Assembly (NCBI GenBank): GCA_963669175.1
Contig: OY769902.1
Coordinates: 736,001 to 800,000, forward strand
Direction of reading: 5' to 3'
Source of the DNA: a bacterium
GTDB taxonomy: Bacteria; Electryoneota; Electryoneia; Electryoneales; Electryoneaceae
DNA: 64,000 bases
In this document: positions 52,722 to 55,710 of the stretch, one piece after another
Layout of the letters: each line of letters opens with the position of its first letter
Numbering within the stretch: the stretch's first letter is position 1
The notes under the pieces: model-generated
Seen by the model: only the letters and a program-made list of their open reading frames with translations
The model's database searches: none
What the model was told of the DNA's origin: nothing
Program-made: the position numbers and the translations under genes

Positions 52722-53133
52722 CGTCACCTCCATCATGAGAGTCAGGTTGAATCTAACATTTCTTGAGAAATAAAGCAATAAGCTCATAGGGAGTTGTTAT
52801 CTTTTGGGTTAGGATGATGTTTCATGCAAACCCGGAAAAGAGTGCGCCTGTGAAGCCATTGGTCTTCAGGCTTTCTGTCCTGATCTATACAGCCGGGAAG
52901 TGTTAATTTATGCTAATCCTGACGATAACAATCCAGTGTAAGGATTCTGTTAGGATGGTGAGTTGTTATTGATTTTGTGGAAGAGGGGTGTCAAAGGCGC
53001 TGTATGTTTTTTCGAGCGTAACATCTTATATTGTTTTAGTTTGTAGAAAATATAGCGATTCCCATTATTAATCCGTCATATGGTCAGGTTCAATACCGGT
53101 GAAGAATCAACTACATAGTTGGAAAGAAGAGAT

Positions 53134-53324
53134 GGAAAAAGGGGACAGCCTCCTTTCCCTGGGGTAAAGCCTTCCCGCTGTAAACATGGACCGGGAAAGG
53201 TGGCTGTACCCTTTTTTCTGAGAACAGGCATGAAATACACGGAAAAGGGGACAGTTTCCTTTTCCATGAATACTTCAGGAATATTCTGCATAAGCGCGAG
53301 GAAAAGGATCCCGTCCCCTTTTCC
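53134..53324. repeat. Four 25-nt GGAAAAGGGGACAG-type units in alternating orientation
   Basis: Units at 53134 (+), 53194 (-), 53241 (+) and 53300 (-), with gaps of 35, 22 and 34 nt. Confidence 0.8.
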
Positions 53325-53444
53325 CGGCAATCTCTATTATGTCGGAATAAAATCGAGTTCCTATGTTAAACGACAGGCGCATCAAGTCGTGTTGGAACTG
53401 CTATCTTAGCAGTATTCCATTTTTCCAACACAAGGAGAAGCGCC

Positions 53445-54506
53445 ATGTCGAAGAACCAAGTTATTGCAGCGGACCGTTCATTGTCTATAGGTCTGGATGT
53501 TGATTCGCAGACTTCTTTCGCCGTTGTGCTCGACACCCAGACTGGTGAAGTGCTCTTTGAGAATCGGATCAAGCATGACTCAGCCGCCTGGGAACGCTTC
53601 TTTGCCCGTTTTCCCAACTGCCGCATGTGGGCGTGTTATGAAGCGGGCCTCACCGGCTTTGGCCTCTGTCGTTACCTGATCGGCCAAGGTGTTGACTGCC
53701 AGATCGCGCCGCCCAGCCAAGTTCCCAAAGGGGCGCAAGCGAAGCAGCAGAAGACCGATCATCTGGATGCCCTTACCTTGGCCCACATGTTCTGGACACC
53801 ACCTCGTACCTGGGTACATGTCCCCACAGAACAGGAAGAGGCGGATCGTCAGTTGTCTCGCACCCGTGACCAGGTGATGAATGATCGCGTTCGGGTCAAA
53901 AACCGAATCAAGAGTCTGCTATTGTTTCACGGTTTACAGTCACCGTTTCCGCCGCAACGCTATTGGACAAAGGAATACCGGCGCTGGTTGCGAACGTGTG
54001 ATTGTCTGGCCGCGACACGGATAGCCATTGATGTTGCTCTCGATGAGCTGGAGGCCATTGAACAGCAACTCAAGGTGATCACCAAAGCGATCAAGGCGAT
54101 GAATGCGTCCGCAACGTATCGGGACCGTACCCAGCGCCTGCGCCAGGTGAAGGGAGTGGGCGAGTTGACCGTGAACGCCTTCGTGACCGAGATGTATCGT
54201 CCCGAACGCTTCGCATCCGGTAAGCAAGTCGGCGCACATCTTGGCTTGACGCCGTGTGAATGGTCAAGCGCCAACACACGCCATATGGGACACATTACCC
54301 ACTGGGGACCGTCCCATCTACGAAAACTATTGGTCGAAGCTGCGTGGCGTTGGGTGCAAAAAGATCCGTATGCAAAGAAGAAATACGATGCGATCCATGC
54401 CGGGAAAACACGGAAAGTGGCGATCGTCGCCATGGCACGAAAACTAGCCGTGATACTGTGGGCCATGCTGGTCAAAGAACAAGACTACAATCCTGCCTGC
54501 GTATAA
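53445..54506 (+). CDS. IS110-family DEDD recombinase/transposase
   Basis: GLDVD, YEAG, KTDHLDA (RuvC-like DEDD). GVGEL, GLTP..WSS, LRKLLVEAAW, AIVAMARKL. Confidence 0.95.
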   Translation: MSKNQVIAADRSLSIGLDVDSQTSFAVVLDTQTGEVLFENRIKHDSAAWERFFARFPNCRMWACYEAGLTGFGLCRYLIGQGVDCQIAPPSQVPKGAQAKQQKTDHLDALTLAHMFWTPPRTWVHVPTEQEEADRQLSRTRDQVMNDRVRVKNRIKSLLLFHGLQSPFPPQRYWTKEYRRWLRTCDCLAATRIAIDVALDELEAIEQQLKVITKAIKAMNASATYRDRTQRLRQVKGVGELTVNAFVTEMYRPERFASGKQVGAHLGLTPCEWSSANTRHMGHITHWGPSHLRKLLVEAAWRWVQKDPYAKKKYDAIHAGKTRKVAIVAMARKLAVILWAMLVKEQDYNPACV

Positions 54507-54710
54507 CCCCAGCACTGCTGGCAGGTAGGTAAAGCATAGATTGTGATTGAATCGTCCGATGCCATTGGGAACACGCGACCCTGGTAGTTATTCTGTTGCT
54601 TGACAACGATTCGAGTTTAGGGCGCCGCTGTTCCGTGCGAACAAAAAACCTGTGCCACGAGCACGAATAGCAGAACGGCACATGGGACGATACAAAGGCT
54701 CTTTACACCC
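54507..54710 (+). ncRNA. Candidate bridge/seek RNA of the IS110 element
   Basis: Structured 3' non-coding end with 7-nt segments matching the left and right halves of the target and donor sites (see findings). Confidence 0.65.
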
Positions 54711-54852
54711 TTGACTGTTTACATAGCAGAACAGCTATATCTATCGACAAGGTACTTTGCTGTCGTGTTTTCAGGAGCAGACAGTAACCATTGCTGTGAT
54801 CCGGGTGTCTAACTATGAGTGGATCACCATGGAGTCGGATCAGGAGGAATAC

Positions 54853-55710
54853 ATGAGTCGCTCAAAGCAACTACTTATCGCCCTGGCAACAGGTGCGTGT
54901 CTTTTAACGGGATTATTGGCTGGGTGTGTCAAGCAGGATGGTCAAACAATTCAAATGCTTGGTGGCGCTATCAGCATTCGAATTCCGGAAGACTGGAGCA
55001 CAGAGTCCGAATCTTCCGATCCGCTGGAATTTTACCTCAAGCATGGTGATCAGACTCTGGCCAGCCTGGTCGCCGAGGCCGGTGAAGCGGTGACCCAGAA
55101 GTATCCTCAAACCTGGGACGAAGAACTGGTTACAGCACAAGGTATGAACTCGAGCCAGCTTGGCGATTTGGAAGAGATCTTTGCCCATATGCAGAAGGGT
55201 GTCCGCTATTTCGACCGTGACGATAAAGCAATGGCCTACCTTGAGGACGGGCCTGAAGGTCTGGACCATTTACACATGCGCTTCTATGATGATGATGAGG
55301 GCGCTGTACTCACGATGGATATCTCCTTGAAGCCTAAAACCATGAGCACCATGCGCGAGGCTATCATTGAAGTTTACCGAAATGTCCATGTTGATGACCA
55401 GGTCAGTGTGAGTGTGTCTTACGGCGACACCGAATCCAGCAACGCAAAACAAGCCCTGGACAATATGCTTGATCAGTACGACAAGCTTCTTGATCAGTAT
55501 AAACAGGCGCGTAAACAGGCGGAAAAGGGTATCGCCGGGGCTCAGGATGAAGCCATGAAGCTGTCTGACCAGATATCAGACTGGACTGACAGTTGGGATG
55601 ATAAGATGGATGAATTAAGCGAACAATTGACCGCGTCCGATCTGCTTGAAGTGACACGTGAATATCGAGACAAATTGGAAGAATATCGCGACATTATTAC
55701 GGGCGATTGA
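54853..55710 (+). CDS. Hypothetical lipoprotein
   Basis: AGGAGG RBS, LLAGC lipobox, C-terminal coiled coil. Confidence 0.7.
   Translation: MSRSKQLLIALATGACLLTGLLAGCVKQDGQTIQMLGGAISIRIPEDWSTESESSDPLEFYLKHGDQTLASLVAEAGEAVTQKYPQTWDEELVTAQGMNSSQLGDLEEIFAHMQKGVRYFDRDDKAMAYLEDGPEGLDHLHMRFYDDDEGAVLTMDISLKPKTMSTMREAIIEVYRNVHVDDQVSVSVSYGDTESSNAKQALDNMLDQYDKLLDQYKQARKQAEKGIAGAQDEAMKLSDQISDWTDSWDDKMDELSEQLTASDLLEVTREYRDKLEEYRDIITGD

Follow-up and report, generated by a model that had tools for sequence, protein, structure and literature searches.

Does the 3′ non-coding end of an insertion sequence from an Electryoneaceae bacterium encode a bridge (or seek) RNA, and in what order would its guides stand? 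The question is raised by a stretch of 64,000 nucleotides (GenBank assembly GCA_963669175.1, contig OY769902.1, positions 736,001 to 800,000 of the forward strand), hereafter the window, in whose coordinates positions are given. A sequence-only reading had proposed an intact IS110-family element with an AG core, the 3′ end of which would carry four guide matches inside a long-range stem, in the permuted order right donor (RD), left target (LT), right target (RT), left donor (LD). Our analysis indicates that the locus is most probably an IS1111-type element whose 223-nt 3′ non-coding end encodes such an RNA, but in the order RT-LT-RD-LD, since the right-target and right-donor guides each stand 5′ of their left partners. 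The copies of the element, their ends and target, the complementarity between guides and flanks, the conservation and covariation of the stems, and the positions of the guides are matters of observation.

The element spans positions 53358–54729 (+). It is 1372 bp long, as is every one of its 12 copies in the 5.45-Mb genome. The copies are 99.3–100% identical and vary at 15 positions in total, just two of which, 54650 (C/T) and 54728 (A/G), fall within the non-coding 3′ end. Each reads LT-AG|TTCCTATG...CATAGC-(A/G)G|RT. The left copy of the core (53356–53357, +) is AG at the junction in 12/12 copies, and the right copy (54728–54729, +) is AG here and in 7 other copies, and GG in 4 copies at GG-core sites; empty sites have ..TCG-AG-AAC.. 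once. The identical ends of the 12 copies bear out both the proposed element ends and the predicted circle junction ATAGC-AG-TTCCTA. A comparison of the flanks of the other copies, which the sequence-only reading had suggested, likewise gives consistent AG/(A/G)G ends in all 12.

The transposase/recombinase gene (53445–54506, +; 353 aa, IS110 family) is open in 12/12 copies. Its product combines a DEDD RuvC-like N-terminal domain (Pfam PF01548, DEDD_Tnp_IS110; residues 15–160, E 5e-18, 65.7 bits against a cut-off of 29) with a C-terminal Tnp domain (PF02371, Transposase_20; residues 230–314, E 8e-20, 71.5 bits against 21.3). These domains, the open frames and the empty sites described below agree with an intact IS110-family element with an AG core. 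The C-terminal half aligns to the ISCro4 (9t56) and IS621 (8wt6) transposases (E 3e-9). In the ISCro4 alignment GLTPCEWSSA of the query falls on GLTPRRYESG; the serine (S241 of IS621) is kept and the next residue is A. The residue after the motif serine varies, and a passage of PMC11187229 mentions TA, SG and TG.

The left non-coding end (53358–53444, +; 87 nt) starts with TTCCTATG, the right donor, and holds the left subterminal inverted repeat (sTIR) and a predicted −10 box. The right one (54507–54729) measures 223 nt, so that the longer non-coding end lies downstream of the transposase gene. The left sTIR, CTATGTTAAAC (53361–53371, +), recurs in inverted form as the right sTIR, GTTTACATAG, which together with C (54727) forms the end of the left donor (54717–54727, +); compared with the reverse complement of 54717–54726, CTATGTAAAC, it matches at 10/11 with a 1-nt indel. 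A predicted −35 box TTGACT (54711–54716, +) would meet the predicted −10 box TATGTT (53362–53367, +) across a 17-nt spacer only in the circle junction, and a search for a sigma-70-like promoter inside the integrated element found none. Hallmarks of the IS1111 group include, in the relevant passages of PMC11208160, PMC11187229 and PMC12288879, a longer downstream non-coding region, sTIRs of 7–17 bp and a junction promoter. By its sTIRs, its longer 3′ non-coding end and its junction-promoter geometry the element would belong to this group of the IS110 family, and its copies are active-looking.

Two sequencing runs of unknown kind cover the element. In run X2 a 1373-nt contig over 53355–54727 has a depth of 287, compared with 19–45 for flanking contigs (compared over 53300–54800), and in run X3 two contigs (53355–53642 and 53613–54709) with a depth of 398 cover the same span. 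These depths fit roughly 8–12 copies. No circle or empty-site joints were reported in either run.

The window's copy interrupts a dispersed, hairpin-rich repeat, whose 3′ part (53120–53355, +) ends in ..AAAATCG, the left target, and whose continuation, the right target AACAGCTA, lies at 54730–54737 (+). The 58 nt to the left of this copy recur at more than 40 places in the genome. A 21-nt left-flank probe (at most 4 mismatches) matches 76 places. The element sits in 7 of them; AG-core sites without it account for 61, and the remaining 8 show another dinucleotide at the core position. The empty AG-core sites continue with AA.. in 57/61 cases, typically as ..AAAATCG-AG-AACAGCTATA, and their commonest variant is AACAGC (28/61). 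The reconstructed empty target AATCG-AG-AACAGC is thereby confirmed by 61 empty paralogous copies of the repeat. The repeat (53120–53357, about 76 places) contains two long hairpins of the GGAAAAGG..GTCCCCTTTTCC type, and its 3′ terminus is the main target of the element. Rfam models matched its hairpins (53133–53333) only below threshold, and only with miRNA models.

A second repeat family has three copies at its end; empty terminal units of this family read ..CTTTCG-GG-AAC..CTATA. The 40 probe matches for this repeat include 10 GGAA and 2 AGAA empty terminal units, and 25 other non-occupied matches, made up of internal tandem units (15, AATC/ATTC) and other continuations (10). The repeat begins AGCCGGGTGCTAAG..GCCTGCTGAAGCAGGCT, continues as a tandem array of 18-nt units (GAATCAGCAA-A/T-AACTTTC), from a single one to more than 8, and terminates in ..TTTCG-GG-AAC..CTATA; examples lie on G000:C1 near 1214270–1214430, 2430180–2430400 and 4207990–4208110. 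The terminal TCG-RG-AAC..CTATA, the target of the element, is common to both families. Two insertions have left flanks unlike either family and right flanks AATAACTAT and AATTTCTAT, and one GG-junction copy occupies a site unlike either family, with no empty counterpart.

Which segments of the 3′ end read these sites? The four motifs of the sequence-only reading and its stem are all present where it had placed them. We compared the motifs with 5000 dinucleotide shuffles of 54507–54715. ATTCGAG (54609–54615) matches AATCGAG at 6/7 (P = 0.19), GCTGTTC (54627–54633) the reverse complement of G+AACAGC at 7/7 (P = 0.009), ATAGCAG (54667–54673) the right-end ATAGCAG at 7/7 (P = 0.008), and TGGGAAC (54566–54572) the reverse complement of G+TTCCTA at 6/7 (P = 0.25); all four jointly were found in 0/5000 shuffles. 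A further segment, missed by that reading, gives the strongest match: TAGTTATTC (54585–54593) fits G+AATAACTA, a right flank seen in 3/12 copies, as its reverse complement at 9/9 (P = 0.0002). The right-target guide would then be UAGUUAUUCU (54585–54594, +), which is complementary to core and right target, AG+AATAACTA, on the top strand, and the left-target guide AUUCGAG (54609–54615, +), which has the same sense as the left target plus core and complements the bottom strand. The latter also fits TTTCGAG and CTTCGAG (left flank plus donor AG in the second site group) at 6/7, and the inferred TTTCG-GG at 5/7.

Relatives of the element allow these assignments to be examined. Protein searches returned L031 and L035 (48% identity), L032 (35%) and L033 (32%), and the protein-based scan of genome contigs gave 3 relatives only, too few for covariation. 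A search of 61 genomes (the own one and 60 related) found a match in 3, the own genome counted, and a DNA pattern had 0 matches in viral contigs. In metagenome contigs a pattern combining the right end with the left-donor guide, which is conserved, matched at least 120 stretches, 80 of which were fetched. Because this pattern fixes GAATAGCAG and the right end, the set is informative on covariation only upstream of them.

The pattern relatives share ..TTGACT-N4-ACATAGC-AG and differ in their flanks, in the start of the left end (TAAC, TACC, TTCC, TTTT, TGAC, TCAC, GTAC, GTTC or TCGC) and in part of the non-coding end. Since TTGACT was fixed in the search pattern, its invariance among them follows from the search; it is present independently in L035 and L031. 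The variable 4 nt after CTATGT(T) in the sTIR co-vary at both ends. Left ends were detected by this repeat; a search for AGTTCCTATG, one mismatch allowed, had located only a few, as most relatives start TAACTATG. Six relatives (L068, L071, L072, L088, L097 and L115), in which the detected left end lacks a preceding AG, were dropped from the left-flank counts.

In these relatives the guides change with the flanks. We searched the 150 nt before GAATAGCAG for exact matches to each relative's own right flank (core G plus 9 nt). A complement of at least 7 nt was present in 18/53, compared with 3.1% of mismatched pairs, and one of at least 8 nt in 12/53, compared with 0.95%. Most of the strong matches are found between −97 and −128 from the left-donor guide (L035, −83; L111, −93); the window's own 7-nt right-flank match is GCTGTTC, at −38. 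The own left flank (10 nt including AG) recurs in the same sense over at least 7 nt in 13/25, as against 5.6%, mostly at −67 to −78 and ending in AG, which supports the left-target guide that had been proposed at 54609–54615. In the model alignment described below, the right- and left-flank matches form the 5′ and 3′ sides of one stem-closed loop, where the window has GUAGUUAUUCU and CGAUUCGAG, and the covariance model aligns 54585–54594 to the place of the relatives' right-target guide. The former right-target guide at 54627–54633 lies instead in the linker between the two loops. There, a complement of the own right flank of at least 6/7 is found in 3/46 elements, the window's included, compared with 3% of mismatched pairs, and at 7/7 in the window alone.

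One relative deserves mention as an observation in its own right. The copy in L031 (the same stretch as L036, about 540–1800), a contig of a Calditrichaeota MAG, is decayed: its transposase frame is broken by a TGA and an internal deletion, and an insertion of about 230 nt separates the left-donor guide from the right end. The target loop nevertheless fits the flanks of this copy, with AUCCAG for ..TAATCC-AG.

The scaffold that carries these guides is conserved. From 39 metagenomic relatives RNAalifold predicts two helices, an 11-bp stem around a large loop and, just 5′ of GAAUAGCAG, an 8-bp hairpin, with compensatory changes at 15/19 pairs. A covariance model made from these 39 relatives, the window left out, has one match in the 64-kb window, at 54569–54678 (+), over the full model length (23.1 bits, E 2.3e-4), and also matches L035 (E 0.008). 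In the model-fitted alignment of 50 sequences, which leans towards the structure of the model, 14/16 pairs show compensatory changes, and paired cells make up 95.8%, compared with 76.1% after shuffling (0/500 shuffles reach this value) and at most 49% with slid partners.

In the window, the outer stem of the target-binding loop is formed by GCGACCCUGG (54575–54584, +; compensatory changes at 7/8 modelled pairs) and UUUAGGGCGC (54616–54625, +), and is present in both the minimum free energy (MFE) fold and the covariance model. Between the two target guides lies an inner hairpin, GUUG-CUUGA-CAAC followed by G (54595–54608, +), which in the family corresponds to GUG..CAC hairpins of variable length. 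The donor-side hairpin, UGUGC-CACGA-GCACG (54651–54665, +), has compensatory changes at 7/8 pairs and reads GCGA..UCGC in L035. Outside both, the strands ATCGTCCGATG (54551–54561) and CATGGGACGAT (54681–54691) form 7 contiguous pairs (ATCGTCC/GGACGAT), one mismatch and 3 more pairs. The contiguous part, AUCGUCC (54551–54557, +) and GGACGAU (54685–54691, +), is Watson-Crick throughout and belongs to the MFE fold.

Position-equivalent closing stems of other sequence (GAACC/GGTTC, ATCCAA/TTGGAT, TTGAATC/GATTCAA, CGTGAA/TTCACG) are, by reading, the best stem in about 16/49 relatives, and stems of at least 6 nt occur in 24/49 own pairs, compared with 26% of mismatched pairs. The long-range stem enclosing the motifs, which the sequence-only reading had drawn, therefore stands. 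A first closing-stem test with long segments and G-U pairs allowed did not discriminate (mean 7.9 vs 7.7); it used the wrong region of the window and was replaced. In the proposed check by folding and covariation, two helices carry compensatory changes in relatives, and the energy of the single-sequence fold is unexceptional. By its anatomy, the 3′ non-coding end looks like a bridge/seek RNA.

The genome itself provides a second line of evidence on the target. With the 12 copies removed in silico, all (A/G)G-core sites were scored, the left target being taken at 4/5 to ATTCG. By match to AATAACTA, 2/2 sites are occupied at 8/8, 4/12 at 7/8, 4/91 at 6/8 and 0/579 at 5/8; by match to AACAGC, 3/37 are occupied at 6/6 and 4/191 at 5/6. 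Another class of sites with 8/8 to AATAACTA, in which the left target matches at 3/5, is occupied in 1/2 cases. Sites with at least 7/8 to AATAACTA are thus occupied in 6/14 cases, compared with 3/37 for perfect AACAGC (Fisher P = 0.008). Within the first repeat family AACAAC/AATAAC flanks are found in 3/7 occupied and 3/61 empty sites (P = 0.012). Occupancy points to AATAACTA and not to AACAGC, which is the same direction as that of the comparative data.

The copies also differ in what they inherit at the core. In all four copies at inferred GG-core sites the left junction reads AG and the right one GG; the other eight, in AG-core sites, read AG on either side. Of the four sites, three lie at the repeat whose empty units are mostly GG, and one has no empty counterpart. 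From the pattern of AG/GG against AG/AG junctions it follows that the base at 54728 derives from the target and the A of the left junction from the donor. A mismatch between donor and target at core position 1 is tolerated.

The first core base may lie outside the heteroduplex exchange, both strands crossing over 5′ of it. If true, the cleavage geometry would be unlike the two-base core described for IS621. The 4/4 asymmetry is equally compatible with one strand of a heteroduplex being retained in all four (1 in 16 for this direction). In the accessible portions of the literature on IS621 chemistry, the side of the core on which each strand is cut is not stated in a form that predicts the AG/GG outcome. 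That such a crossover is combined with GCUGUUC acting as a lineage-specific second right-target complement, which widens the range to AACAGC, is a speculation we regard as unlikely.

Could both right-target complements work? UAGUUAUUCU would then be ancestral, and GCUGUUC (54627–54633, +) a lineage-specific second guide or handshake-like segment, which aids the use of AACAGC or regulates the RNA via the left-donor guide. The exact 7-mer is unlikely by chance (P = 0.009), and 4/12 copies occupy AACAGC sites, which need one mismatch to UAGUUAUUC and one G-U pair. Furthermore, the MFE fold pairs GCUGUUC with GAAUAGC (54665–54671), and the linker of L031, CUUAUGC, resembles by eye its own right-target guide, CUUAUCGC. 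Against this, the linker signal is not family-wide, a single P of 0.009 is weak after four motifs and many registers had been tried, and AACAGC forms the majority of available sites, where an occupancy of 3/37 needs no extra guide. We consider this explanation rather improbable; the segment may be a chance match or lineage-specific. As for the linker in general (54626–54646), the family-conserved sequence is GAAUACCUCGGAU and that of the window CGUGCGAAC, and it resembles the left-donor guide region, CGAAUAGCAG.

The donor guides can be followed in the same alignment. The left-donor guide, AAUAGCAG (54666–54673, +), lies 3′ of the conserved hairpin, and its last 7 nt equal the right end ATAGC plus AG. 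The earlier assignment of 54667–54673 holds up against the relatives; the guide is invariant in all of them, L035 and L031 from the protein search included, so that no covariation is seen. L032, which is 35% identical, has a similar scaffold with GAUGCAG in place of AAUAGCAG; its right end was not located.

For the right donor we propose AAC(C/U) (54647–54650, +), just 5′ of the hairpin, where AAC pairs with the core G and the TT of the left end. In the window the hairpin is preceded by AAAAAAC-C, of which only AAC pairs. Position 54650, adjoining the guide on its 3′ side, is C in 3 copies (the window's included) and T in 9; with U the guide reads AACU, is complementary to AG+TT and could also pair the core A. 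In relatives the bases 5′ of the hairpin follow the left end: TAAC goes with UUAC, GTAC with UACC, TTTT with AAAAC, TGAC with GUCAU, TCAC with UGAC, and TACC (L055) with GUAC. This covariation, over 9 left-end variants, was read by eye from the model alignment, which was used because a regular expression for the hairpin start proved unreliable and its column of the 7 nt before the hairpin was ignored. The right-donor assignment is the weakest of the four.

These donor data also bear on the layout originally proposed, in which TGGGAAC (54566–54572, +) is the right-donor guide, 54609–54615 the left-target, GCTGTTC the right-target and 54667–54673 the left-donor guide. In its favor, GCTGTTC fits the commonest target, G+AACAGC (28/61 empty sites), at 7/7, TGGGAAC makes 5 contiguous pairs with G+TTCC compared with 3 for AAC, and both segments are in unpaired multiloop or linker parts of the fold. 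However, relatives complement their right flank from the 5′ side of the target loop, and in the linker such complements are at control level, AACAGC sites are occupied less often than those near AATAACTA, and the two insertions outside both repeat families have the right flanks AATAACTAT and AATTTCTAT.

TGGGAAC is part of the multiloop segment that precedes the target loop, and its match is at chance level. In the 27 relatives whose left end is defined, that segment never holds a core-proximal right-donor complement. Its 5-nt matches are the distal CATAG in several relatives, TAAAA in L059 and TTACT in L111, and not even a 5-nt right-donor match occurs there in L035 and L086, whose left end is likewise TTCC. 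TGGGAAC is therefore probably a chance match, and the order RD-LT-RT-LD as a whole is very hard to sustain.

Several points weigh against our reading, in which the 3′ end encodes an RNA with the order RT-LT-RD-LD. The thermodynamic fold is no better than that of shuffles (single-sequence folding, z = −0.83 and −1.23), values that discriminate in neither direction. The only RNA run with a match (share 0.08) does not reach the non-coding end: it contains two contigs of 151 nt each, both from the transposase gene of a relative, with 4 and 2 differences; the other two runs, of unknown kind, have a majority T at 54650. The E-value of the model is rough, the window is the second-weakest of 50 matches, and, the relatives having been gathered with a pattern that contains the donor, part of the covariance-model score is circular.

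On the target side, the occupancy counts are small, and copies in one repeat family are not fully independent. The left-target guide fits every used site only at 6/7. No site with a perfect ATTCG is occupied, though the 44 counted (right target at 5/8 or 6/8) have right targets of 6/8 or less, and the window's own right flank, AACAGCTA, fits the proposed right-target guide at 7/9, compared with 7/7 for GCTGTTC. On the donor side, right-donor pairing here comprises only 3–4 bp, and the fit is poor in L060 (3/4), L080 (3/5) and L086 (3/5).

The unexceptional fold energy, the RNA run that holds only transposase fragments of a relative, and the lack of an Rfam family match would also suit a locus without a guide RNA, where the matches are DNA-level features (protein-binding sites, end repeats, target remnants) and the protein chooses the target, but this is scarcely credible: compensatory changes keep two helices in 50 sequences, which points to selection on a folded single strand, the guide segments change with the flanks while the protein family stays constant, and related IS1111 elements need and bind such an RNA in the experiments reported in the text of PMC11187229. 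The Rfam 15 scan of 53000–55000 (E up to 10) returned nothing in 54530–54735; the sole overlap with the right non-coding end was the mir-595 model at 54489–54529 (15.5 bits, gathering threshold 70; E 7.8).

How might such an element work? By analogy with studied members of the family, we infer transcription and processing of the RNA, its binding by the protein, the formation of circles and the chemistry. As in IS621 and ISEc11, the element would excise as a circle, which would join TTGACT of the right end to TATGTT of the left end and so create a promoter. In the RNA, the closing stem 54551–54557/54685–54691 would enclose all the rest. The target-binding loop would be an internal loop closed by the 10-bp stem, with the right-target guide on its 5′ side and the left-target guide on its 3′ side. 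With the closing stem at this position, the donor guides would fall in a multiloop: AAC (54647–54649), the hairpin (54651–54665), then AAUAGCAG (54666–54673). The transposase, bound to this RNA, would recombine ATAGC-AG-TTCC with ..TCG-(A/G)G-AA(C/T)A(A/G)CTA.. at the ends of the two dispersed repeat families.

This arrangement resembles that of the IS1111 seekRNA elements ISEc11, ISPa11, ISKpn4 and ISPst6, as far as the text of PMC11187229 describes them. They too have a long downstream non-coding region with sTIRs, a transposase of about 340–350 aa with a GLxPxxxxS(G/A) motif, and a junction promoter built from a right-end −35 and a left-end −10 box. In all the seekRNAs of the group tested by Siddiquee et al. 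(2024), according to the same text, the complement of the top target strand stands 5′ of that of the bottom strand, in contrast to the IS110-type ISEc21; here 54585–54594 likewise precedes 54609–54615, and the two matches overlap at the insertion point. This order is restated in Table 1 of PMC13604230, in the part of that paper that we drew on.

That IS1111 reverses the target guides with respect to IS621 has thus already been published, and the permuted order of the sequence-only reading is neither correct in detail nor new in principle. Compared by description, our element differs from these four in its target (the ends of two dispersed repeats), its AG core and its host phylum. In the parts that treat guides, the text of PMC11187229 confines itself to target matches; the donor-side guides are an additional proposal of the present analysis. 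The donor-guide order for three IS1111 members may already stand in Extended Data Fig. 10c of PMC11208160.

The comparison with IS621 rests on portions of Durrant et al. 2024 (PMC11208160) and Hiraizumi et al. 2024 (PMC11208158). As in IS621, the RNA proposed here has two modules built around a core dinucleotide; in each, the left guide reads the bottom strand and the right guide the top strand. According to the former paper, all guides of IS621 include the core and stand in the order LTG-RTG-LDG-RDG (left and right target guides, left and right donor guides). In the window's element the left guides include the core, as does the right-target guide at AG-core sites; the proposed right-donor guide would pair the core G in every copy and the core A only in the 9 copies with U at 54650. 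Common to both are guides flanking a hairpin in a stem-closed loop, a short right-donor guide, if our assignment holds, and a homologous recombinase (E 3e-9 to 8wt6).

Unlike in IS621, the RNA would lie at the 3′ and not the 5′ end, the right guide comes first in each module (RT-LT-RD-LD vs LT-RT-LD-RD), the core is AG and not CT, the subterminal repeats are longer, and the donor guides would lie in a multiloop instead of a simple internal loop. Multiloop donor guides were noted for many IS1111 orthologues in the passage of Durrant et al. (PMC11208160) on this subject. ISPpu9 of Pseudomonas putida, as presented in parts of PMC12288879, is also an IS110-family element that inserts into repetitive extragenic sequences and has an invariant AG recombination dinucleotide; it differs in belonging to the IS110 group, lacking subterminal repeats and forming circles that create no new promoter.

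The general picture of these recombinases is mostly unchanged by the locus, which offers a clean, multi-copy natural example of what we take to be an IS1111-type RNA-guided recombinase. Its 12 copies and about 70 empty sites amount to an in-genome specificity profile, with occupancy rising from 0/579 to 2/2 with the match to the right target. The four insertions of AG into GG sites are natural evidence for tolerance of a mismatch at core position 1 and for which side keeps which base. The metagenomic relatives, at least 120 of them with one donor end and varied target loops, would be a natural set of guides reprogrammed on IS1111-type scaffolds, on which less work exists than on IS621.

Finally, some of these relatives share a target of their own. 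L049, L083, L087, L098, L113, L121, L124 and others stand at ..ACGTTAG|(G/C)CGC(A/C)AT.. sites and have ACGUUAG as their left-target guide. Some IS1111 members target integron attC sites, and the GTTAGGC-like words at the sites of these relatives resemble attC core sites.

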